A stretch of DNA of 64,000 nucleotides from Eubacterium sp. Lineage in GTDB: Bacteria; Bacillota; Clostridia; Lachnospirales; Lachnospiraceae. The position numbers and the translations under genes are program-made. The notes below the pieces were generated by a model. The model was not told where the DNA came from. It saw only the letters and a program-made list of their open reading frames with translations, and searched no databases. The first letter of the stretch is position 1; every line of letters begins with the position of its first letter. The stretch is from positions 982 through 64,981 of the forward strand of contig JAGABX010000039.1 in assembly GCA_017614395.1 (NCBI GenBank), read 5' to 3'. Of the stretch, positions 7,889-53,328 are shown piece after piece.

Positions 7889-7976
7889 TCAGTATATATG
7901 TGTCAGGAACTATCGTTTCGGGGAAAAGCTTATGGCATAAAAAGCACGGAAAGCACGGATAAAAAGCAAAAAAACC

Positions 7977-8005
7977 TTGCCAAATAACGCAATTAGGTAT
8001 AAAAT
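7977..8005 (+). promoter_or_regulatory. Sigma-A type promoter for the ilvBN leader
   Basis: TTGCCA (7977-7982), a 17-nt spacer, then TAAAAT (8000-8005). The predicted transcript includes the repeat element at 8031-8144. Confidence 0.4.
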
Positions 8006-8030
8006 ATAGGAGATATTGCTGTCAGGCGGG

Positions 8031-8144
8031 GAGCGGAAACCGTCCGAAGTTGCGACAGCGAAGCGAAGCAGCGAGGTTACGGTTCTCGATACAACAGTCC
8101 ACCGGACTGTTGTCCTGAGGGCTATGGCCTCGGCAACCGGACGG
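8031..8144 (+). repeat. Composite intergenic repeat, copy A (modules 1+2+3), in the ilvB 5' leader
   Basis: 8031-8084 is 54/54 identical to the reverse complement of 43065-43118. 8083-8144 is about 80% identical to 38882-38945. It contains a perfect 10-bp hairpin ACAACAGTCC-acc-GGACTGTTGT (8091-8113). Confidence 0.85.
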
Positions 8145-8229
8145 GATCAGTCAGATAATCATACAAGTTTAGAGGAGAGTAAATACTCGGAAAAATCGAT
8201 AAAACTATTTTCGGAAGAAGGAAATAAAA

Positions 8230-9957
8230 ATGGCTATCACAGGAGCGGAACTTTTTGTAAAAGCATTACAGTGCGAGAAGGTTGACACGCTGTTCGCATA
8301 TCCGGGCGGCCAGGCAATCGATTTGTTTGACGCGCTTTACGGGGTGGAGGATATAAGGATGATCCTGCCGCGCCACGAACAGGGTCTGATCCATGCGGCT
8401 GACGGATACGCCCGCGCAACCGGGCGTGTCGGAGTTTGCCTCGTAACCAGCGGTCCCGGCGCGACGAACCTCGTGACCGGAATAGCGACGGCGAATTACG
8501 ACAGCGTCCCGTTGGTATGTTTCACCGGGCAGGTGTCACTCAGCCTCATCGGAAATGACGCATTTCAGGAGGCGGACATTGTCGGCATCACCCGCAACAT
8601 CAGCAAATGGGCTGTCACCGTACGCCGCCGGGAGGATTTGGGCGCGATCATTAAAAAGGCATTCTACATCGCCCGCACCGGCAAGCCCGGCGTGGTGGTA
8701 GTGGATCTGCCGAAAAACATACAGCTGGAATCGGGTTCCGACGAGTATCCTGAGAGCATAGATATCCGCAGCTACAAGCCCAACACGGAGGTCCATATCG
8801 GGCAGGTGAAAAGGGCAGTCCGCGTTATGAAAAAGGCGGAGAAACCGCTTTTTCTGATCGGAGGCGGAGTGAACATTGCGCGCGCAGGCGAGGCCATGAC
8901 TGCGCTGGCCGAGAAAACGCGGATCCCGGTGGTCACGACCATCATGGGCAAGGGCGCGCTCCCGACCGACCATCCCCTCTATGTCGGGAACCTCGGCATA
9001 CACGGGTGTTATGCTGCAAACGCGGCGGTGGCGGAGTGCGATGTGCTGATTTCAATCGGTTCCCGTTTCAATGATCGCATAACCGGCAAGGTTGATGAGT
9101 TCGCAAAACATGCCAAGATCATTCATATTGATATAGATACAGCGTCGATCTCACGAAACATCGAGGTTGATATCCCGATCGTGGGGGATGCCGGAAACGC
9201 GATACGGTCTCTCTCGGAATACATGACGACGCTCTCGACTGATGAGTGGATCGCAAGGATTGATGCATGGAAACAGGAACATCCGTTAGGTGCCGGCCAG
9301 CCGGATCTGCCGGGCGTGAATCCGCGCAGGATCATCCGTGAGATAAACAGGATATTCCCCGGAGCGGTGATCACAACCGATGTAGGACAGAACCAGATGT
9401 GGACGACACAGTACATCGAGCTGACAAACGGAAGACAGCTCCTTACCTCCGGAGGACTCGGGACGATGGGTTACGGTTTTCCGGCGGCGATCGGCGCGAA
9501 ACTCGGCTGCCCCGACCGGCCGGTCATTGCGATTAACGGTGACGGCGGATTCCAGATGAATCTGCAGGAGCTGGCAACGGCGGTTGTGTATGAACTGCCT
9601 GTGATAATCTGCGTGCTGAACAACGGTTATCTCGGAAATGTGCGCCAGTGGCAGGAACTTTTTTACGGGAAAAAGTATTCCTCAACCTGTCTGCGCCGGC
9701 GTGAGAGTTGTCCGATAATATGCAACTCGCCGTGTGAGGACTGTCCGCCGTTTATTCCGGATTTCGTGAAACTGGCAGAGAGCTACGGCGCGAAGGGAAT
9801 TCGTGTCGAGCGCGAGGAGGACGTTGTGCCGGCGTTTGAGGCGGCGCTTTCCGAGAAAAAGCTTCCGACGCTGATCGAGTTCATCATAGACCGTGAGGAG
9901 AACGTAATGCCGATGGTACCGCCGGGAAAAACGATCGAGTCGGTTATACTTGAGTGA
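8230..9957 (+). CDS. ilvB: Acetolactate synthase (acetohydroxyacid synthase) large subunit
   Basis: The TPP-enzyme pattern is present: GAELFVKAL, PGGQAIDLFDAL, TSGPGATNL, GLGTMGYGFPAAIGA and INGDGGFQMN. There is a Cys-rich insert near the C-terminus. Confidence 0.9.
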   Translation: MAITGAELFVKALQCEKVDTLFAYPGGQAIDLFDALYGVEDIRMILPRHEQGLIHAADGYARATGRVGVCLVTSGPGATNLVTGIATANYDSVPLVCFTGQVSLSLIGNDAFQEADIVGITRNISKWAVTVRRREDLGAIIKKAFYIARTGKPGVVVVDLPKNIQLESGSDEYPESIDIRSYKPNTEVHIGQVKRAVRVMKKAEKPLFLIGGGVNIARAGEAMTALAEKTRIPVVTTIMGKGALPTDHPLYVGNLGIHGCYAANAAVAECDVLISIGSRFNDRITGKVDEFAKHAKIIHIDIDTASISRNIEVDIPIVGDAGNAIRSLSEYMTTLSTDEWIARIDAWKQEHPLGAGQPDLPGVNPRRIIREINRIFPGAVITTDVGQNQMWTTQYIELTNGRQLLTSGGLGTMGYGFPAAIGAKLGCPDRPVIAINGDGGFQMNLQELATAVVYELPVIICVLNNGYLGNVRQWQELFYGKKYSSTCLRRRESCPIICNSPCEDCPPFIPDFVKLAESYGAKGIRVEREEDVVPAFEAALSEKKLPTLIEFIIDREENVMPMVPPGKTIESVILE

Positions 9958-19831: not shown

Positions 19832-20617
19832 ATGAGAAAGCTTAACAAAAACCTAAAGGATATGATAGAAAAAACAGGGTTGGATATTGAACAATTACCG
19901 GAAGATAATCTATTGGGCGCACAGGGAAGAATAATTGCATATTTGATCAGTACAGGTAAACTATCGTATGAACAATATAAAGAGATGTATCGGGAATTTG
20001 AAGATCGAAATGAATACATTAAAGTATTTGAAATGGCGCCGAGAACCTTTGGAGAGACATGGTTGGAAAAAAGAATCTTGGAAAAATTCCCATATACTCC
20101 GGGAACTAATGGTAAGGGATTAATTAAAGCAAAGAAAAAAGATGTTGAACGAGAGTTTCCAAACTATTCAGATCCGTTAGGAAAACCGTTTGGGAGCCAA
20201 TTTGATTTCATATGTTTTGATGGTTGCCAAAGGTATAAAGTAGAAGTCAAGGCATGTAGAGCCAATTCCGAGGAGCCTATAGACGAATTGGGGACATCCA
20301 GTTTGTCAAGTCGGGCATATTCGTATAATGAAGCGAAAAAATTCGAGTTCAAGTTTCACTTTCAGCAGATCAAGCCAGGTTTTTGTGATGTGTTTATTCT
20401 TGTTGGTGTATGTACAGACAAAATATTATATTGGATACTTACTCCAGATGAGTTGATAAAAGCAGGAGGATTATCACCGCAACACCCAACAAGCGGAATA
20501 AAAGATGTTAATGATGCTAAATTTGAAGGACAAGTATACAAACGAATAGATGACTATAAAAAGTTTCTGGTGAACGAGGGACAAATACTGGATATGATAA
20601 TCAAAAAAATGCATTGA
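19832..20617 (+). CDS. Hypothetical PD-(D/E)xK-type nuclease, candidate restriction endonuclease partner of the adjacent methyltransferase
   Basis: FDFICFDG-x10-YKVEVKACR gives a D...E-x-K core. The ORF is convergent with the MTase across a 56-bp gap and lies in an AT-rich island. An extended -10 promoter lies at TTGACG (19690) ... TGATATAAT (19711-19719). Confidence 0.5.
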   Translation: MRKLNKNLKDMIEKTGLDIEQLPEDNLLGAQGRIIAYLISTGKLSYEQYKEMYREFEDRNEYIKVFEMAPRTFGETWLEKRILEKFPYTPGTNGKGLIKAKKKDVEREFPNYSDPLGKPFGSQFDFICFDGCQRYKVEVKACRANSEEPIDELGTSSLSSRAYSYNEAKKFEFKFHFQQIKPGFCDVFILVGVCTDKILYWILTPDELIKAGGLSPQHPTSGIKDVNDAKFEGQVYKRIDDYKKFLVNEGQILDMIIKKMH

Positions 20618-20673
20618 GTAGTGCATGCTTTCAAGCAGGAGTGTGGAATAAACGGTTTTTTATATTCATTTTT

Positions 20674-22836
20674 TTAAGTGAGGAACAGGTTTCCTTCATC
20701 CATTGTCGACTTAATGATTCCATACTCTTCAGTCTTGATATTGTAAAAAGTCGCTATTATTTTATCAAGTTCATCATAGAATTTTTTTATTTCATTTGCT
20801 TTATTTGAATCAAGAATATCATCGACCAAAGCTATTATTTTGTTTTGATCCCCGGCTGATACCATCGGGATCGGAAGTTCCTCTAAATGTGCTCTCAAAA
20901 CCTTTACTGAATTAAATTGTTTTTTAAAATAAAATTGCATACATCTAGAATTTAGAACTGCCATTATGTATTTAATTTTTATATCCGGTATTTCTGGTAT
21001 AAGAATATTACAACTGTTTAGTGACAGTGTTTGTTTATCATCGTATGCAAACACAAGCTGATTACAGATAAATCTATACAATAATTTTTCAGGCGCACGA
21101 TACATTTTGGTGGGAGCCACTTGCTGAAATCTTTCTGGAGAAAACACCATATAGTTTTCTGACGGTTTGATTCGAAATTTTAACAAATCTGATCCTTTTA
21201 ATACTGTTTCGCTTTCATGTGTTTTTTCTTTTTTTATGTATTCATTATTATTTCCAGTTACAATTCCCAAAGCATATTTAGCCTGCCCTTTCAGTGTGGT
21301 TTTATTATTAAGACCACCCATTTTTTTTACAATTCTGTATTCTTCATCTGTCATAGAGAGACTAATGCAGTTAGCTGTTATTTCTCTTTCTGTCATAATC
21401 TTAAACTCTCGACTGCCGTCTGATACAATCATGCCAATACTACTAAACCCGGCCTTTTTATTTAGCATTTGCAGAATAATGCATGGACATTGAACTTTGT
21501 CGAACGCGTTCCCTATATACTCTATGTATTGGAAATCGCAACTGCTTAGAATCTTACTACGAATCATAGTATGCGTCTTAACATTCAAAATTGCTTCCGG
21601 TAAAATAAAAGATAGTATTCCATCCGGATTCAAATTGGAAAGTGCCTGTTCAACAAAAATATCATATGATTCAATACTATTACCTAAGGCTGAATAGTAC
21701 CTGCTTCTTAATTCTCTCTTATACAGATCAGAAAAATCATATCCCCACGGCGGATTTCCAATTATAAAGTCATATTCGTTTTCTTTTTCATCACAGAGAT
21801 AATCCTTTTCTGTAATATGCCCATAAACGATCTCCGGAGCATACTGATCATATTTCAAGGCGAAGTTAATTCGCGCTATCTGTACACTAATTGTATCAAT
21901 ATCGTTACCATAAACATATTCGAAGTCGATTTCATTAGGAAGTTGAAGGATAAAATTACCCGTCCCACAACACGGATCCAAAATCTTTTTTCCGACAGGA
22001 TTATTCATACTAAACAGTTTATTGCATAGTTTTTTAACAATTCTTGTTGGTGTATAATATGATCCCGTTGCTTTCCTTTCACCTATGTTTTTTAAAGAAA
22101 TATATAATAGTCCAAGCGTGTCTTCAGATGGTTCGTATTCAAATCTGTGATTAAACAACTCCGGATGTTTACTTATAATATCAAGAATACCAGTTTGGTT
22201 GTTTATGAGATCATCTATTAGATACCAACAATCATTTTCCGGTAAATTACCCTGGATATATTTACTAAGAGTATTAGAATCCGCAGTATACCCAATTTTT
22301 CTTAAAAAAAGCTGGATTGCACATTCTGAAATAACAAGGCGTAATAGGCTGTCCGTTAATTCCAGACAGGCTTCATCCACCTCATCTATTATTTTTTTAA
22401 CAATATATCGACTTTCTGATAATTCAGAAACATACGAATTGTAAATGTTATTTCCAGTAATATGCTTTTTATTTCTTCTGCTTTTTAACACTCCGTTTTT
22501 TCCGTTCTTAATTTCTTCCTTTAATGAATTCACATATGTCTGGCTAAAAAGCGGTGATCGTTTAGTTTCACAACATGGACTGATTTTCCCAAGTCTTAGC
22601 CAGTTTCGACCGGTAGCAACCGATACAGATAATTCACTACATAAATCTGAAAGTGACAATAAGTCACCTCCGTTAACACTGCGCTCATCAAGTGGTTTTA
22701 CCGCATCACTTGGTATAAGCCAAACATTACTTATCATTTGCGCCCCAGCAATTCGTCCTTCCTCACATAGTTTTTGCACTCTACGTTCTGAAATATTAAA
22801 TCGTTCCGCGGTTTGTTTTACTGATTGCAACTTCAT
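20674..22836 (-). CDS. Gamma-class N6-adenine DNA methyltransferase (Eco57I/TaqI-like) with two N-terminal HTH motifs
   Basis: Motif I ILDPCCGTGNFIL and motif IV IIGNPPWGY. A C-terminal TaqI-like target-recognition region is present. The N-terminus has SVKQTAERFNISERRVQKLCEEGRI and a second HTH, LSDLCSELSVSVATGRNWLRLGKI. AAGGAG Shine-Dalgarno site. Confidence 0.85.
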   Translation of the reverse strand: MKLQSVKQTAERFNISERRVQKLCEEGRIAGAQMISNVWLIPSDAVKPLDERSVNGGDLLSLSDLCSELSVSVATGRNWLRLGKISPCCETKRSPLFSQTYVNSLKEEIKNGKNGVLKSRRNKKHITGNNIYNSYVSELSESRYIVKKIIDEVDEACLELTDSLLRLVISECAIQLFLRKIGYTADSNTLSKYIQGNLPENDCWYLIDDLINNQTGILDIISKHPELFNHRFEYEPSEDTLGLLYISLKNIGERKATGSYYTPTRIVKKLCNKLFSMNNPVGKKILDPCCGTGNFILQLPNEIDFEYVYGNDIDTISVQIARINFALKYDQYAPEIVYGHITEKDYLCDEKENEYDFIIGNPPWGYDFSDLYKRELRSRYYSALGNSIESYDIFVEQALSNLNPDGILSFILPEAILNVKTHTMIRSKILSSCDFQYIEYIGNAFDKVQCPCIILQMLNKKAGFSSIGMIVSDGSREFKIMTEREITANCISLSMTDEEYRIVKKMGGLNNKTTLKGQAKYALGIVTGNNNEYIKKEKTHESETVLKGSDLLKFRIKPSENYMVFSPERFQQVAPTKMYRAPEKLLYRFICNQLVFAYDDKQTLSLNSCNILIPEIPDIKIKYIMAVLNSRCMQFYFKKQFNSVKVLRAHLEELPIPMVSAGDQNKIIALVDDILDSNKANEIKKFYDELDKIIATFYNIKTEEYGIIKSTMDEGNLFLT

Positions 22837-30450: not shown

Positions 30451-33396
30451 ATGAGCCAGCTGCATAGTGTTGTAATGGTTATCCAGATAATCAGCATAGT
30501 TGTTGTATTCATAGAGTGTTGGGTTGCGTTCAGGAACTGGCGGAGCAAGGCTCAGGCATACCTTTTTTTCGCGTGCATAACTACTCTGGTCAACGATGCG
30601 GCGTACCTGATGGAGATGACATCCCGAAACAAGGAGCAGGCGTTTACATCGCTGCAGATGTCCTATCTGGGCAAGACATGGACAGGCTTTTTTATGCTCC
30701 TTTTTATAGCGGAACTGACAGGGTTTACGATACCGCGCGTTGTCAAGGTCATTCTCGGAATCATAAACACTGCAACCTATATCGCTGTATTCACGACAAA
30801 AACAACGGGACTGTATTACCAAAGCACCCTGTTTGCGCTGAACGGTGATCTGGTGGTTTTGACGAAAAAGCCCGGGATATGGTATCATTTCTGGACGGGC
30901 ATGATGGTGTTTTATACACTGTTCGGAATAGTGATGCTCATCATAACGTTAACGAGGGAAAAAAGCGCTATAGTGAAAAAGCGTGTCTGGCTCGTCCTGC
31001 TCTCATTGATCATACAGGGAGGATGCGTTGTCATTCAGATGCTGAGGCTTTTTCCGATCTGTGATTATTACGACCTCACCATGGCATCATTTCCTATCGG
31101 TGGGATCCTCGTTCTGGTTGCCATATTCAAATACAGGTTGTTTGATGCTGAGGGACTCGCGAGGAAATACGTTGATGACGAGTTGTCCGAGGGAATCATA
31201 GCCATAGATAACAGCGGCAGGGTAGGATTCAGCAATGCTACGGCTCGGGAACTTTTTCCGAAACTGACAATCAATCCGCGAAAAACAACTGATAAGATCG
31301 ATCAGGCTATCGAGACGGACAATCTGTTGTACCTGAATGACAGGATTTACACGCCGTCATCACAGGAACTAATACAAAAAGGTCAATCGGTCGGCAGGCT
31401 GTATGTGCTGAAGGACGACACCGAGCATTACAATTACATGGCGGAGCTGTCAGAGCAAAAACAGATAGCGGACGATGCGAACAAGGCAAAATCGCTTTTT
31501 CTCGCAAGCATGTCTCATGAGATCAGGACACCGATCAACGCGGTGCTCGGAATGGACGAGATGATCCTGCGTGAGAGCCGGGAACCGGATACGCTGTCAT
31601 ATGCGGGTGACATCCGGACGGCGGGGCAGACGCTCCTTTCGCTGATAAATGACATACTTGATTTTTCCAAAATAGAGGAAGGCCGGATGGAGATACTGCC
31701 GACGCAGTATGAACTGTCCTCGATGATAAACGACCTCGTGAATATGATCAGGAGTCGTGCAGAGAAAAAGGATTTGCAGTTTGAGGTTGAGGTCGATCAG
31801 GATATTCCGTGCACGCTGTATGGTGACGAGATCAGGATCAAGCAGGTGGTGCTGAACCTCCTGACTAATGCCGTGAAGTATACGGAAAAAGGATCAGTAA
31901 AACTGGAGGTCGGGTACCGGCGGGCTGACTCCGGCCAAATTATCCTATCTTTCCGTGTTACAGACACCGGCATCGGAATGAAGGAGGAGGACATGAACAG
32001 GCTGTTCTCTCCATTCGAGCGTATCGAGGAGGTCAGGAACCGTTCCGTCGAGGGCACGGGACTTGGGATGAGCATCGTGAAACAGCTCCTCGAACTGATG
32101 GACAGTCAGCTGGATGTAAATAGTGTTTACGGCGAGGGATCGGAGTTTTCATTTGAACTGCGCCAGGGCGTTGTGAATGACGAGCCGATCGGGGATTATT
32201 CGGCACGGTATGAGGCAGCGGCGAATGAAGTATATCACGAACTTTTTCACGCACCATCAGCCCGTATCCTGGTTGTCGATGATAATGAAACAAACCTTGC
32301 GGTTATCAAAAATCTGTTAAAAAGGACGCAGATTCAGATCGATACCGCAACATCGGGACGCGAGGCGATAGGGCTGGCTGCGGCGAAACTGTCAGAGTCT
32401 GCAAAATCGTCAGAGCAGCCTGATTCTTCACAGTCGGATGAGTCCGCGGAGCAAACAGGGACTAATCACAGAGGATATGATATTATTCTTATCGACCATA
32501 TGATGCCCGACATGGACGGAATTGAGACTCTGCAACACCTGAAAAAGCAAGCTGTTGAATCAGAGATTTCCGGTCTCGCTGAATCTTATGATCATACGAG
32601 CAAAAGAACAACAAACGATTTGCCCGATCAGACAGTATATATCGCTCTGACAGCGAATGCGGTATCAGGTGCGCGGGAGATGTATTTATCTGCCGGATTT
32701 GACGATTATCTGACGAAGCCCGTGGACGGTTCCGTGCTGGAGACGACGTTGCGGCGCTATCTCCCGGCGGAAAAAGTTTTGCCGGCGGATGGTGCAGACG
32801 TATCTGCCGGGGAGGATTCACTCCCAGACTGGCTGACACGGATTCCGGAGCTCGACATGACAGAGGGATTGCGATACGGCGCGACACCGGATGGCTACAT
32901 TTCGATCCTGAAGGTATTCCATAGGACAGCGGAACAGAAAATGCAGGAGATACGCGATAACTATGAGAATGAAAACATCGGTGACTACACGATTGAGGTT
33001 CATGCATTAAAAAGCTCGGCGCGTATGATAGGCGCCACAGAAATATCAGCATTGGCAAAACAACTTGAGGATGCGGGCAAATCCGGCGATATGGACTTCA
33101 TTCATGACAATACGGACAGATTGCTGACCATGTACCGGGAACTCGATGAAAAACTAATTCCTCTCGATGAGAAAAAACTTGCGGAGGATATTTCGGATAA
33201 ACGTTTAGATGAGGCGTTCCGGACAATCGGTGAGATCGCGGAGAGCATGGATTACGGGCTGATGGAGGAGCTGCTGGACAGCCTGCGCGGATATCGGATG
33301 TCATCGGATGATGAGGAACGGCTCACAGAGATATCATCAGCATTGACACAGCTCGACTGGGATGCTATCATGGATATTGTCAAAGAAAGGAAATAA
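30451..33396 (+). CDS. Hybrid sensor histidine kinase (7TM sensor, PAS-like, HisKA, HATPase, REC with insertions, HPt)
   Basis: Multi-TM N-terminus. H-box SMSHEIRTPINAVLG. N/G boxes LTNAVKYT and DTGIGM...GTGLGMSI. REC ILVVDDNETNL...ILIDHMMPDMDG...LTKPV. C-terminal HPt HALKSSARMIGA. Confidence 0.9.
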   Translation: MSQLHSVVMVIQIISIVVVFIECWVAFRNWRSKAQAYLFFACITTLVNDAAYLMEMTSRNKEQAFTSLQMSYLGKTWTGFFMLLFIAELTGFTIPRVVKVILGIINTATYIAVFTTKTTGLYYQSTLFALNGDLVVLTKKPGIWYHFWTGMMVFYTLFGIVMLIITLTREKSAIVKKRVWLVLLSLIIQGGCVVIQMLRLFPICDYYDLTMASFPIGGILVLVAIFKYRLFDAEGLARKYVDDELSEGIIAIDNSGRVGFSNATARELFPKLTINPRKTTDKIDQAIETDNLLYLNDRIYTPSSQELIQKGQSVGRLYVLKDDTEHYNYMAELSEQKQIADDANKAKSLFLASMSHEIRTPINAVLGMDEMILRESREPDTLSYAGDIRTAGQTLLSLINDILDFSKIEEGRMEILPTQYELSSMINDLVNMIRSRAEKKDLQFEVEVDQDIPCTLYGDEIRIKQVVLNLLTNAVKYTEKGSVKLEVGYRRADSGQIILSFRVTDTGIGMKEEDMNRLFSPFERIEEVRNRSVEGTGLGMSIVKQLLELMDSQLDVNSVYGEGSEFSFELRQGVVNDEPIGDYSARYEAAANEVYHELFHAPSARILVVDDNETNLAVIKNLLKRTQIQIDTATSGREAIGLAAAKLSESAKSSEQPDSSQSDESAEQTGTNHRGYDIILIDHMMPDMDGIETLQHLKKQAVESEISGLAESYDHTSKRTTNDLPDQTVYIALTANAVSGAREMYLSAGFDDYLTKPVDGSVLETTLRRYLPAEKVLPADGADVSAGEDSLPDWLTRIPELDMTEGLRYGATPDGYISILKVFHRTAEQKMQEIRDNYENENIGDYTIEVHALKSSARMIGATEISALAKQLEDAGKSGDMDFIHDNTDRLLTMYRELDEKLIPLDEKKLAEDISDKRLDEAFRTIGEIAESMDYGLMEELLDSLRGYRMSSDDEERLTEISSALTQLDWDAIMDIVKERK

Positions 33397-38844: not shown

Positions 38845-38881
38845 TAAGTGTGTCCAAGGCTGTAACTCGGGAGAAACACGA

Positions 38882-38945
38882 TTCTCGATACAACAGTTCG
38901 CCGGACTATTGTCTTGAAAAACATGGCTGTGGCAATCGAATGTGG
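38882..38945 (+). repeat. Intergenic repeat copy C (modules 2+3) in the leader of the acetyltransferase gene
   Basis: TTCTCGATACAACAGTTCGCCGGACTATTGTCTTGA...ATGGC..GGCAA is about 80% identical to 8083-8144. Confidence 0.7.
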
Positions 38946-38958
38946 AAGGGCGTGAACA

Positions 38959-39816
38959 ATGGAAAATCAACCGGAAATCGGGAATAATACTATTATCGGG
39001 AACAATTTCCAATGTGGTAAAAACGTTGTCATAAAAAGCAATTGCATTATCGAGGACAATGTCGTATTAGGGGATAATGTCTATATCGATCACAATTGCA
39101 TTATTCGCAATGATGTATCGATCGGTGACAATTCGACGGTTGGAGCGAACTGTATTTTAGGCGAGCTTCAAATGGATTTTTTTCTGGATCATTCCTATCA
39201 CAAACATGAATTGACAATAGGGAAAAATGCTATCATACGCAGCGGATGTATATTTTACAGCGGCTCGGAGATAGGGGACGATTTTCAGTCAGGCCATCAG
39301 GTTACAATTCGGGAAAAAGCAATGATCGGAAACCATGTCAGTATAGGAACGCTGAGTGACATACAGGGGCACTGCAGTATCGGAAACTATGTCAGGCTGC
39401 ACAGCAACGTCCATGTCGGCATGGCTACTGTAATAGATGACTGTTGCTGGATTTTCCCCTATGTCGTATTTACAAATGATCCGACCCCTCCATCCGATAC
39501 ACTGCTGGGCGTTCATGTACATTCATTTGCCATAGTTGCAACGCATGCGACAGTTCTGCCGGGAATCGAAATACAGGGAGATTCCCTGATCGGAGCCGGG
39601 GCAGTGGTGAATCGTAATGTTGAAAAATACCAGGTGGTTGTCGGTAATCCCGGAAAGGTCAAGGGGGATATCCGACAGATAAAAAACAGGGAGACAGGAG
39701 AGAATTACTATCCGTGGAGGTTTCATTTTGATAGGAATATGCCATGGAAAAACTATGGTTTTGACAAATGGTATGAAACATTGGATGATGAGATGAAGAG
39801 AATGCTTCTGGAATAA
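38959..39816 (+). CDS. Left-handed beta-helix (hexapeptide-repeat) acyl/acetyltransferase
   Basis: Many [LIV]-G-x-x-x-x hexapeptide repeats run through the protein (IGNNTIIGNNFQCGKNVVIKSNCIIEDNVVLGDNVYI...). Confidence 0.75.
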   Translation: MENQPEIGNNTIIGNNFQCGKNVVIKSNCIIEDNVVLGDNVYIDHNCIIRNDVSIGDNSTVGANCILGELQMDFFLDHSYHKHELTIGKNAIIRSGCIFYSGSEIGDDFQSGHQVTIREKAMIGNHVSIGTLSDIQGHCSIGNYVRLHSNVHVGMATVIDDCCWIFPYVVFTNDPTPPSDTLLGVHVHSFAIVATHATVLPGIEIQGDSLIGAGAVVNRNVEKYQVVVGNPGKVKGDIRQIKNRETGENYYPWRFHFDRNMPWKNYGFDKWYETLDDEMKRMLLE

Positions 39817-42598: not shown

Positions 42599-43009
42599 TT
42601 ATGAATTATCAGTGTTCTTAATGAATTCCAAAAACTCGTCGTAGTCGCGGATGTAGTCGGCCTCGTCATAGAGTTCGCTTGCCAAAACCATCAGCACTGC
42701 GTCGGGAGAAAAATCAAACATCTCCCTCCACATTACATTGGAGACATATAATCCTTCATAGGGTTTTTCCAGAGGAACGACCTTGGTCTCCTGCCCGTTG
42801 TCAAGGCGGATCTTGCAGCTGCCGTGGATACAGATAAGTATCTGCTCCAGGGATTTGTGCGCGTGATGTCCCCTCACGACGTCCTTGCCGGTATCGTACA
42901 TGTAGTAGACTCGTTTGATTTGGAACGGGATGTCCTTGAACTCCTCTAGCGCGACAAGCTGTCCGCGGTCATCACCATGCGGTTGGAACATATATTTGAC
43001 TACTTGCAT
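42599..43009 (-). CDS. fdtA: FdtA/QdtA (WxcM-like) cupin, dTDP-4-keto-6-deoxyhexose 3,4-ketoisomerase
   Basis: HGDDRGQLVALEEFKDIPFQIKRVYYMYD...VRGHHAHKSLEQILICIHGSC matches the FdtA pattern. 136 aa. Confidence 0.8.
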   Translation of the reverse strand: MQVVKYMFQPHGDDRGQLVALEEFKDIPFQIKRVYYMYDTGKDVVRGHHAHKSLEQILICIHGSCKIRLDNGQETKVVPLEKPYEGLYVSNVMWREMFDFSPDAVLMVLASELYDEADYIRDYDEFLEFIKNTDNS

Positions 43010-43015
43010 ATTGTT

Positions 43016-43175
43016 CTCCTTTTAACTTGAAAGTTTTTCTCTGCCGAATCCGTCCGGTTGCCGAAACCGTAACCTCGCTGCTTCGCTTCGCTGTCGCAAC
43101 TTCGGACGGTTTCCGCTCCTTTTAACTTGAAAGTTTTTCTCTGCCGAATCCGTCCGGTTGCCGAACCCATCCGGT
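43016..43175 (-). repeat. Intergenic repeat copy B (modules 3-1-3) including a 50-nt direct duplication of the fdtA leader and its Shine-Dalgarno site
   Basis: 43065-43118 is the exact reverse complement of 8031-8084. 43016-43065 is identical to 43116-43165 (100-nt period). An extra partial unit lies at 43166-43179. Confidence 0.9.
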
Positions 43176-43178
43176 TGC

Positions 43179-44201
43179 CTACGTTTCATGGATTAATCGT
43201 ACGTATTCTTCGTCGACCGTGGCAGCGGTGTATCGAGTGTGCAGCCTGTGGTCTGTTATCGAGCGGAGCTTGCCGGGAATTCGCAAACATCCTATTGTTC
43301 TTTTTATTGATGAAGATGACTTTTTTATTTCGGACAGCCGGATAAATGATTTACGGAGCGTTTCATCCGATATAAACCCGTCTGCCAGCAGGATCTCATC
43401 TGCAGAAGCCCAGTCGGCTGCGATCTTTTTCATCCATTCATCGTTCTGTGCGGTGGAGATGCCGGTTCCCAGTTCATATAACACGGCACCCTTTCCCAGG
43501 AAAAAGGCACGCTCGCCGGCTCCTGCCATCAGGCGATAGATGTTGTCTTCTGCATAGACAACTTTGTTTTGAAGCATGCCCAGATACTTTTTCATAGACT
43601 GTGTATTCACAAGTGTGGTCGCGCCTCTCACCAGATCCTCGAAAATCAGGTAGTTGTAACCCCATGAATTACGGTAGAATCCATGATTTTTCTGCGGATG
43701 TGTCTGAACCGAGACGATCTGCAGGTTTTCGGGGGAAATGTCGGAGCTGGTATAACTGTAACAAATATCGTCAGCAAACCCCACTATGCAGCCATGCTTT
43801 TTCATGCCGTTCATCCAGTCTCTGAGTATTGTCTCGCCATAGAGATAATCACCGGGGCTTATCGGTTTTACATATTCGCCATGGCAATAGTTCAGGCCGT
43901 TTATCAGGTTCTCAACTGTGCCTTTGTTTTTAGTCAGTGCTGCTATTTTATAGTCGGTAAAACCATTTTTTTCAAAAAAAGCAGTGACTGCTGCGGTATC
44001 CAGATCATCTCCCGAACCATCGTCAGCGATTACAATCTGAATTGATACACCTCGTTGCATCAAGGCGGAACGGAGAGTGACAAGCAGCTTTTCCATTGAA
44101 GGATGATAGGTCGCAACGAGGACACTTATGTCACAGGATATATTGGTTGCCGGATCGTTGTTTTTATCTGATGTAGCAGAGTTGCGGATATTGTTTGTCA
44201 T
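43179..44201 (-). CDS. Family 2 glycosyltransferase
   Basis: ISVLVATYHPSMEKL...QIVIADDGSGDD is a GT-A DxD-type N-terminus. Confidence 0.8.
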   Translation of the reverse strand: MTNNIRNSATSDKNNDPATNISCDISVLVATYHPSMEKLLVTLRSALMQRGVSIQIVIADDGSGDDLDTAAVTAFFEKNGFTDYKIAALTKNKGTVENLINGLNYCHGEYVKPISPGDYLYGETILRDWMNGMKKHGCIVGFADDICYSYTSSDISPENLQIVSVQTHPQKNHGFYRNSWGYNYLIFEDLVRGATTLVNTQSMKKYLGMLQNKVVYAEDNIYRLMAGAGERAFFLGKGAVLYELGTGISTAQNDEWMKKIAADWASADEILLADGFISDETLRKSFIRLSEIKKSSSSIKRTIGCLRIPGKLRSITDHRLHTRYTAATVDEEYVRLIHET

Positions 44202-52146: not shown

Positions 52147-53235
52147 CTACCTCATCCTTTTTCTCTCTCCGAACCGTCCGGAGAAATCCATTGTTGAGCA
52201 GTCAGTGAGGGGCAGTTTCACAGGCTGGTTTTCGGCAGCTGATTTATATATCGCCAGCACCAGTTCCAGCGCGCGTTTTCCGTCCTCGGCTGTCACATAC
52301 GGTTCCCGTCCGTTTTCTATCGCAGATATCATATCCGCATATAGAGGGGTGTGGCCGAACCCGTAGACATTCGGCGGATTCTCCCCGAATTCTTTTTTTA
52401 CCGATTCCGGATCATCTAAATAATCAGCAAACGTCCATTCCTCTATCCTGTTGACTGAGGAACCGCCGGCCTTTACCGTTCCTTTCTGTCCGAATAGGTA
52501 CAGGGTTTCCTCCAGATTTTTCGGATAGATGTCTGTCGTTCCTTCGACGATTCCATATGAACCGTTTTTAAATTTTATCAGCGCGATTCCGAGATCCTCT
52601 GCCTCGATGTATTCATGATTGAGGCGGTCTGTCATACCCATGACTGTATCGATCTCGTCCCCCATCATCCATCGGAGGAGATCGATGTTGTGGATGCACT
52701 GGTTCATGAGCGCGCCACCGTCCTGTTCCCAGGTTCCGCGCCAATCGGCACGTGAATAGTATTCCCAGTCACGGCACCAGCGCACATGGGCGGTTCCGTA
52801 GAACATTTTTCCGAAACGTCCTTTTTCCAATGCATCCCGGATTTTTTGTACTGATTTGTTAAACCTGTTTTGATGGTTTGCGCATACCTTAACGCCTGCG
52901 CTTTTCCCGGCAGCGATGATTGCATCGGCATCCGCGATTGACAGGGCAATAGGTTTTTCTATTATGGTATGGCAGCCTGCGTTGATGCAGTCAATCGCAA
53001 TGGACGCATGATTTCCCGATTCCGTTGCAATGGCTACGAGCTCCGGTTTTTCCTGCTCCAACAGTTCCCTGTAGTCCGTGTATTTTCTGACGGTTCCCAA
53101 ACTGAATTTTTTTGCTTTTTCCTCCATCGCCTCCGGCAGGATATCGCACATGGCAACGAATTCTAAATTGTTGTTCTTTGCTGCTTCGATGTGGTTCGGG
53201 CTGATCCGCCCGCAACCGATAAGTGCATATTTCAT
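52147..53235 (-). CDS. Gfo/Idh/MocA-family oxidoreductase (WbpB-like)
   Basis: MKYALIGCGRISPNHIEA Rossmann N-terminus. Its position next to the WbpD/E/A-like genes supports the call. Confidence 0.8.
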   Translation of the reverse strand: MKYALIGCGRISPNHIEAAKNNNLEFVAMCDILPEAMEEKAKKFSLGTVRKYTDYRELLEQEKPELVAIATESGNHASIAIDCINAGCHTIIEKPIALSIADADAIIAAGKSAGVKVCANHQNRFNKSVQKIRDALEKGRFGKMFYGTAHVRWCRDWEYYSRADWRGTWEQDGGALMNQCIHNIDLLRWMMGDEIDTVMGMTDRLNHEYIEAEDLGIALIKFKNGSYGIVEGTTDIYPKNLEETLYLFGQKGTVKAGGSSVNRIEEWTFADYLDDPESVKKEFGENPPNVYGFGHTPLYADMISAIENGREPYVTAEDGKRALELVLAIYKSAAENQPVKLPLTDCSTMDFSGRFGERKRMR

Positions 53236-53290
53236 AATGACGCTCCTGTTTTTAATTATATTATGTTACAGTCTACCCTAATCATGATAG

Positions 53291-53328
53291 ATTCTCTGAC
53301 CCAAATCCGGTTGGGGCCGAAACCGTAC
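53291..53328 (-). repeat. Intergenic repeat copy D (tail of module 1 plus module 3)
   Basis: The minus strand reads GTACGGTTTCGGCCCCAACCGGATTTGGGTCAGAGAATC. Compare copy B, TTACGGTTTCGGCAACCGGACGGATTCGGCAGAGAAAAAC. Confidence 0.6.

Follow-up and report, generated by a model that had tools for sequence, protein, structure and literature searches.

We analysed a 64 000-nt stretch of DNA from Eubacterium sp. (assembly GCA_017614395.1, contig JAGABX010000039.1; 'the window' below) and found that the 5′ leader of ilvB, the gene for the large subunit of acetolactate synthase, carries a repeated element. The segment 8030-8177 is likely to be a full nested copy of a small, non-coding, lineage-specific family of modular palindromic repeats, with ~60 copies in 2.6 Mb. 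The copy in the ilvB leader (copy A) is an ordinary, though maximally nested, member of this family, and the family itself is a dispersed genome repeat, not a dedicated regulator of ilvB. It is a real and well-defined family, specific to its lineage, and a new addition to the small interspersed repeats already known as a class in bacteria. The window corresponds to positions 982-64981 of contig C19 of a 2.6-Mb metagenome-assembled genome (MAG; 151 contigs, 46.6% GC, 94.7% complete) obtained from ruminant-gut metagenome samples; the uncultured host has Shine-Dalgarno sites of the Firmicutes type.

The nested repeat upstream of ilvB

All features of copy A lie on the forward strand. Its left flank is a GGAG (8030-8033), a putative duplicated target, and directly 3′ of it begins module 1 (8034-8084), a palindromic unit of the form CGG, AAACCGT...ACGGTT with 7-nt inverted ends and a slippage-prone centre rich in GCGAA. 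Module 1 is separated from the H box, TCGGCAACCGGACGG (8130-8144), by the nested module 2 (8085-8129), a 45-nt hairpin module. The H box is complementary to the head of module 1 and opens the 3′ module, which continues with the linker (G)ATCAGTCAGA (8145-8155), the part with the highest conservation in the conservation profile of the family, and with a small AU-rich hairpin (8156-8171, one mismatch in copy A) immediately 5′ of a right-hand GGAG (8174-8177), the presumed docking site. As this GGAG is situated 53 nt 5′ of the ilvB ATG and no start codon follows it closely, it is not the Shine-Dalgarno site of ilvB; the gene (8230-9957, with TPP_enzyme N, M and C domains) has its own ribosome-binding site (RBS), GAAGGA. 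Upstream of the repeat, the promoter-like site TTGCCA-17-TAAAAT at 7977-8005, which a preliminary description of this locus had considered a plausible promoter, agrees with the consensus at 10 of 12 positions and is a consensus match only. If this putative promoter is used, the entire repeat would be within the ilvB 5′ untranslated region (UTR).

The preliminary description had also reported an exact match between the leader and a distant locus. We found this match to be 55 nt long: 8030-8084 on the forward strand is identical to 43065-43119 on the reverse strand (copy B), with a chance expectation of 0 in shuffled sequences. The hairpin module does recur, as had been stated, with 77% identity between 8079-8139 and 38878-38938 (copy C) in a segment that includes ACAACAGTCC-acc-GGACTGTTGT. 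The sequence TCGGCAACCGGACGG, thought to resume an interrupted unit at 8130-8144, is indeed found directly 3′ of module 1 in copy B, and the composite is nested as suggested, the palindrome of module 1 sitting inside a shorter element and module 2 being nested in module 1. The 89-aa open reading frame (ORF) that spans the repeat (8016-8285, forward strand) had been regarded as a mere translation of it. We share this view: no Pfam match is on record for the ORF, it overlaps the start of ilvB in a different frame, and we do not consider it a gene.

Copies in the genome and their gene context

In the MAG, an nhmmer profile of the 3′ module found 56 copies at E<1e-3 and a covariance model search found 60; anchored searches yielded 46 copies with an H box, 21 module 1 heads and ~5-6 module 2 hairpins, on ~45 contigs. 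About 48 of the 56 copies are sense-oriented, ending in ...hairpin-AGA-GGAG(G) with the start codon of a long ORF 3-8 nt further on the same strand. Co-directional genes flank 37 of 53 copies; the upstream stop codon is often just 2-60 nt before the H box, and across copies the distance from this stop to the repeat varies from 2 to 286 nt. The sense orientation first noticed in the window, where four of four copies are in sense and each is upstream of a gene, thus extends to the genome-wide search: the family has a strong sense bias and a fixed position at the RBS, the opposite of random placement.

The genes following the copies have no function in common. They encode DegV, an FHA protein, a SpoIIE phosphatase, a STAS protein, PanD, a DNA-alkylation repair protein and the CCA-adding enzyme; a class II aldolase, OppC, an XRE regulator, Hpt, an S1-domain protein, MurF and DAHP synthase; and an AI-2E transporter, an aminotransferase, CheX, a LUD protein, IlvB, GlyQS and FdtA.

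One copy (contig C150, ~20560-20740) abuts the first base of tRNA-Ser(CGA), and another (contig C23, ~230-500) is upstream of the promoter of tRNA-Ser(TGA), TTGACA-17-TATAAT. A copy on contig C100 (~31640-31740) is in frame in the gene of an ABC-transporter ATPase, where it makes an insertion of ~26 aa between the signature motif and Walker B; the protein reads ...CIARVMLKL-SVKERNTVSATGRVQSENLSRSEKNSERS-ILILDEATS, and homologues carry LPPM at that point. This in-frame copy resembles the Rickettsia palindromic elements. For a clean comparison of a filled with an empty site its borders are too diverged (68% identity to the nearest homologues), and we rejected it for this purpose.

Distribution among relatives and strains

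With at most one mismatch, the H box has 36 copies in the MAG versus no more than one in any of 40 relatives, of which 24 are congeners. The covariance model produced two weak matches in the closest congener, G017, and 0 matches in 70 other congeners. Exact-pattern searches of ~185,000 species genomes (two patterns) and of the JGI metagenomes returned nothing beyond three isolated single matches; these single-copy matches, in unrelated MAGs (two of Bacteroidales), are taken to be chance occurrences. The element was not found in the ilvB, glyQS and panD leaders of orthologues in congeners; for ilvB, the leaders of 18 congeners were free of it.

The two copies in G017 are located before prkC and between rpmC and rpsQ, and both sites are empty in the host genome. 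At the rpsQ site the host genome reads TAAGGAGgcgtaacccATG, compared with TAAGGA, ttcGATACCG... in G017. The presence of two weak copies in G017 indicates that the family predates the split from this species and then expanded in the host species. Module 1 with its flanking GGAG occurs as five identical 55-nt copies on different contigs, which indicates recent copying. The diverged copy between rpmC (L29) and rpsQ (S17), on contig C133 of G017, is inside the S10 ribosomal-protein operon; S17 in G017 apparently starts at GTG, and the same junction measures only 13 nt in the host genome.

Other assemblies of the same species were retrieved by exact-protein look-ups. Those made with IlvB, IlvN, PrmA and a 285-aa protein returned the same contig, or short contigs breaking inside the repeat. 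At copy B, exactly 100 nt are missing in the assemblies ENA ERZ27256909 and Logan SRR12529214; the missing stretch comprises module 1 and one 49-nt 3′ module of an identical pair, and in three other assemblies module 1 is present before fdtA. Copies A and C are unchanged in the strain of Logan SRR12529214, as far as the contigs extend, and a second long contig has an identical 89-aa frame across the ilvB composite. With ~56-60 mosaic copies, near specificity to one species and presence/absence polymorphism between strains, the element behaves as one of the two possibilities that had been raised for it initially, a repeat similar to REP or to miniature inverted-repeat transposable elements (MITEs).

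In one further assembly, ENA ERZ28653989, scaffold_125251 joins the promoter and leader of ilvB to the fdtA 3′ module via the common 55-nt repeat. This scaffold is most likely a short-read assembly chimera, an example of how the repeat breaks and mis-joins metagenome contigs.

A different hairpin repeat of ~81 nt, GACGAGCACAAATA...GCACGCATGCGGTGACTCGC...GTGCTCGTC followed by a Shine-Dalgarno site, was observed in two sister species (G061 and G003). It has 17 matches per genome, including one in the ilvB leader of G061 and one in the panD leader of G003, and none in the host genome or in G017. This repeat occupies the same kind of position in leaders, and the genus seems to turn over families of leader-docked repeats.

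Architecture and RNA structure

The basic element is ~45-50 nt long and consists of the H box CGGCAACCGGACGG, the conserved linker TTCAGTCAGATAA, a small AU hairpin and AGA. Its short form can be written as GGAG, CGGCAACCGGACGG-GTTCAGTCAGATAA-(small AU hairpin)-AGA, GGAG. The long form has the palindromic module 1 nested at the 5′ CGG, as CGG, AAACCGT...ACGGTTT, CGG; length variants of module 1 are of the slippage type (GCGAA repeats). Module 2 is present in only a few copies, that of ilvB included, and its stem has compensated variants (ACAAC..GTTGT versus GCGAC..GTCGC). Thirty copies are 5′-truncated at many different points, and the 3′ end is constant. The H box and the linker are the best conserved parts, also in copies with divergent tails, while the linker and tail contain TAA or TAG in two of the three reading frames. 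A GATAAT box is common to the larger subfamily; the second subfamily has GATAAA.

Covariation supports two structures, the small hairpin before GGAG and the inverted ends of module 1. The hairpin is paired in 78.8% of cells, compared with at most 43% when the partner strand is slid, and at pair 34/43 of this hairpin 20 copies have AU and 18 have UA. As to module 1, the pairing of AACCGT with ACGGTT proposed in the preliminary description is part of the 7-nt perfect inverted repeat at the ends of the module, which covaries between subfamilies (AAACCGT..ACGGTTT in 6 copies versus ATACCGT..ACGGTAT in 5) and is used in the minimum free energy (MFE) fold of long copies without module 2. The competing long-range pairing of 8040-8053 with 8133-8144 exists as well, in that the MFE fold of the ilvB composite uses it; its mismatches between copies are uncompensated. 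Because substitutions between copies are uncompensated, we rejected the long helix of the module 1 head and the H box as an RNA helix under selection. RNAalifold applied to 42 copies of the 3′ module gave no consensus structure.

For the ilvB composite, the MFE prediction is -74.6 kcal/mol, versus -56.6 for shuffled sequences (z -4.1). The predicted structure is a rod-like hairpin made of the module 1 head paired with the H box and of the 3′ half of module 1 paired with the 3′ half of module 2.

GGAG flanks and a possible mode of spread

GGAG marks the left edge of 12 of the 18 long copies and of 6 short copies, with GGA[A/T] in four more. On the right-hand side, the copy on contig C150 is informative: its GGAG coincides with the first four bases of tRNA-Ser(CGA) and should be the native target, since the acceptor stem of the tRNA requires those bases. 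At glyQS and panD, the right-hand GGAGG and the spacer resemble the native sites of congeners. The comparisons at tRNA-Ser and rpsQ fit a duplication of 4 nt; the duplications of 12-49 nt and the copy in the ABC-transporter gene do not. Judged by these junction sequences, GGAG looks like a duplicated integration target.

The element probably spreads, or did so in the past, at the DNA level, integrating at GGAG and leaving a GGAG on either side. In intergenic DNA a GGAG on the sense strand would usually be a Shine-Dalgarno site, and insertions within genes would be purged. The survivors would be placed in gene sense between an orphan duplicated GGAG and the intact Shine-Dalgarno-to-ATG geometry of the gene, a placement expected to make the copies nearly harmless and co-transcribed with the gene. 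The palindromic modules at the 5′ side may be unstable, and their decay could give rise to the many 5′-truncated copies. In the case of ilvB, docking on a leader GGAG 53 nt before the start codon would have produced a long rod-like hairpin in the 5′ UTR; the effect on ilvB, if any, is probably generic (mRNA stability or processing) rather than amino-acid sensing. The sense bias and the fixed position at the RBS are best explained by docking on GGAG together with selection, with no need for a regulatory function. If confirmed, docking on GGAG would be a target specificity that explains harmless colonisation by small repeats, even of ribosomal-protein operons. A bolder reading, which we consider less likely than not, takes the family for a non-autonomous DNA element homing to Shine-Dalgarno sites. 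It would target the GGAG of RBSs, or other exposed GGAG (e.g. where tRNA-Ser begins), and duplicate it, so that the RBS-to-start geometry of the gene is preserved, and an unusual recombinase, not of the Y1, IS110 or IS91 type, would move it. If homing to Shine-Dalgarno sites is true, the sister-species repeat in a like position may point to a general, fast-turnover strategy in the genus.

A number of observations weigh against such a spread by integration at GGAG. The MAG contained 0 matches to the Y1_Tnp domain (PF01797; the control was positive in 6 of 14 genomes) and no matches in a search for the IS110 enzyme; a search for IS91 also had no match, its control was silent and it is therefore uninformative. 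Nor did the MAG contain a longer element with the modules at its ends, as a parent autonomous insertion sequence would be. These negative results on a mobilising enzyme are weak: the completeness of the MAG is 94.7%, and insertion sequences are frequently lost in assembly. The element as a whole has no terminal inverted repeats, its left end CGGAAACCGT... and its right end ...GATTAGA being unrelated. Duplications of the flanks vary in length (4, 12, ~15, ~26 and 49 nt), a variability that slippage or recombination fits better than the fixed-length duplication made by a transposase. The sole polymorphism within the species is located inside a 49-nt perfect direct repeat and could be a deletion instead of an insertion; the Logan SRR12529214 contig itself could be a collapsed repeat. 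The 30 5′-truncated copies have no GGAG at the breakpoint, and the fuzzy borders of the in-frame copy in the ABC ATPase are at odds with a clean duplication of GGAG. Finally, the near invariance of the H box and linker, despite divergent tails, could reflect function and not youth.

A reverse transcriptase was also considered as a driver and rejected, the only one of the MAG looking like that of a diversity-generating retroelement. This 397-aa protein is encoded (contig C22:27787-31311) beside a lectin-like variable protein with a C-terminal segment rich in Cys and Trp, in an apparent prophage tail-fibre context; the layout is typical of diversity-generating retroelements and the locus is unrelated to the repeat.

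Alternative explanations

Several features of the family could arise by host recombination only, that is by template switching, gene conversion and slipped-strand duplication or deletion between palindromic leaders ending in GGAG, with no dedicated enzyme. This explanation would account for the variable flank duplications, for the coincidence of the borders of the 49-nt duplication at copy B with module borders, for the 17-nt tandem partial duplicate of the H box that adjoins copy B and for the GCGAA length variants in module 1; it also agrees with the differing left breakpoints of truncated copies and with the fact that no transposase was found. However, recombination alone could hardly seed a first copy at naive sites with GGAG only (rpsQ and prkC in G017; tRNA-Ser), and that five 55-nt copies are identical across contigs points to efficient copying, so that we regard it as rather unlikely. 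Integron attC sites, CRISPR and group II introns were rejected, as the copies are dispersed singly over ~45 contigs and form no arrays or associations with the respective genes.

Other explanations assign a function to the element. It might be a portable post-transcriptional control module, kept in ~50 leaders for a trans factor that co-regulates translation. A candidate factor is CsrA, since the H-box mini-hairpin AACC-GGAYG-GGTT would present a loop GGA ~38 nt from that of the Shine-Dalgarno site; another would be a small RNA that pairs with the invariant linker TTCAGTCAGATAA. The high conservation of the H box and linker even where tails diverge speaks for such a module, as do the presence of csrA in the genome, a few compensated variants of the mini-hairpin (e.g. 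AATC..GATT; 72% of cells are paired in helix 1) and the covarying small hairpin before the Shine-Dalgarno site. Still, the downstream genes share no function, 70 congeners have to regulate these genes and do so without the family, the mini-hairpin is weakly supported as a helix, being unpaired at one pair in 17 of 42 copies and lost in the AGTGAG subfamily, and the copies at ilvB and tRNA-Ser are not at a translated Shine-Dalgarno site; we find this explanation improbable. Hardly more credit can be given to a portable cassette of promoter and RBS, in which a weak promoter, TCGGCA-18-GATAAT, would create transcription starts inside operons. Such a cassette has a precedent in Neisseria REP2 (PMC3184786), a promoter-like sequence of this form with 9 of 12 matches is present inside copy A at 8130-8159, its GATAAT box is common to the larger subfamily, and 37 of 53 copies are between co-directional genes, where an internal promoter could matter; against it, the -35 sequence matches poorly, GATAAA takes the place of GATAAT in the second subfamily, the conserved first T is missing from the -10 box, and the right-hand GGAG appears to be native target sequence, not one supplied by the element. 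As for ilvB, the preliminary description had offered a dedicated cis-acting leader RNA as its second possibility, and an attenuator or a new riboswitch for the control of branched-chain amino acids would agree with the location of the element between a promoter-like site and ilvB, with a fold far better than that of shuffled sequence and with two alternative pairings that use the same nucleotides. Yet the same sequence precedes ~50 unrelated genes, and the leaders of ilvB orthologues in 18 congeners have no such element. Neither a terminator-like site or U-tract nor a leader peptide was found at the ilvB leader; Rfam had 0 matches at the gathering threshold across the 64-kb window, and an E-value scan of 7900-8300 gave a single match, a chance hairpin-ribozyme (E 0.52). 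Because the genome-wide distribution contradicts it, a regulator specific to ilvB is not supported, and we consider it extremely improbable.

It would accordingly be wrong to annotate the strongly folding ilvB leader as a riboregulator, or its 89-aa ORF as a gene. About 2% of the host genes carry the same hairpin cassette in the 5′ UTR or at an operon junction, which amounts to a natural experiment on how structured inserts adjacent to the RBS affect translation and mRNA decay.

Comparison with known repeat systems

Among the small interspersed bacterial repeats the family is closest to MIRU, Neisseria REP2 and BOX/BIME; fixed docking on GGAG or Shine-Dalgarno sites sets it apart from them. 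Mycobacterial interspersed repetitive units (MIRU; Supply et al. 1997), as far as they are summarised in the review by Delihas (2011, PMC3184786), are similarly 40-100 nt long, occur in tens of copies, are intercistronic in operons, have gene-sense orientation and are co-transcribed. According to the same summary, MIRU sites that are filled show tetranucleotide direct repeats (compare GGAG on either side of 18 copies here), the homologous sites are empty in related species, and the units have internal GC-rich inverted repeats (PMC3184786). There are differences as well: MIRUs are described there as carrying short ORFs in overlap with the stop codon of one neighbour and the start codon of the next, with translational coupling, and as often forming tandem arrays of the variable-number type, whereas our family has no such ORFs and only one array, of 1.5 units. 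The repeats described here have no fixed relation to the upstream stop and contain stops in two of three frames, their duplicated tetranucleotide is the Shine-Dalgarno core GGAG, and the host phylum differs.

Neisseria REP2 and the Borrelia repeats IR-A and IR-B (Parkhill 2000; Morelle 2003), in the account given of them in PMC3184786, are likewise placed directly upstream of ORFs in gene orientation, end at the RBS and have internal stem-loops without terminal inverted repeats of the whole unit. In that account REP2 holds a promoter, an RBS and the ATG, and marks a set of co-regulated genes (PMC3184786); in our family the spacer and start codon are gene-specific, GGAG is probably native, the promoter match is weak and the genes are unrelated.

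The BOX elements of Streptococcus pneumoniae (Croucher et al. 2011, PMC3049150) and enterobacterial BIMEs are also mosaics of modules of ~45-60 nt, a likeness in build and an analogy only. By the same kind of analogy, an optional inner hairpin, similar to boxB, folds alone and the outer modules pair together. BOX and BIME families further share with ours near species specificity and past bursts with slow present turnover; BOX elements are confined to mitis-group streptococci and S. suis. Unlike our family, BOX has no gene-sense bias and is over-represented between convergent genes (PMC3049150), and BIME/REP sequences are mostly found at the 3′ ends of genes, whereas the repeats studied here are locked to the 5′ side at the Shine-Dalgarno site.

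Elements derived from IS200/IS605, including REP/RAYT systems, resemble the family in their asymmetric ends, subterminal hairpins, fixed junction tetranucleotide and lack of terminal inverted repeats, in a mechanistic analogy only; they need a Y1 transposase, none of which was detected in the MAG, and they do not duplicate the target. Classical MITEs differ in that the inverted 7-nt ends are found here only at the inner, CGG-flanked module 1 and not at the ends of the whole element.

Other copies in the window

Copy B is on the reverse strand and has two parts. Its proximal unit (43016-43119) consists of GGAG, module 1, the H box, a tail unique to this locus and GGAG, the right-hand GGAG being the Shine-Dalgarno site of fdtA (ATG at 43009). 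The distal part (43116-43181) contains a second, identical 49-nt 3′ module (43116-43164), so that the two modules make a direct repeat with 100-nt spacing, and a 17-nt partial duplicate of the H box (43165-43181). This tandem duplicate, TAGGCAACCGGATGGGT, is directly 5′ of copy B on the reverse strand; both strain forms carry it, a sign of slippage at this locus.

In copy C (38878-38945, forward strand), which is 14 nt 5′ of an ATG at 38959, the last part of module 1 is joined to module 2 and a degenerate H box. Copy D (53276-53327, reverse strand) is degenerate and belongs to a variant subfamily with the H box TCGGCCCCAACCGG; it is located upstream of an oxidoreductase gene (52147-53235).

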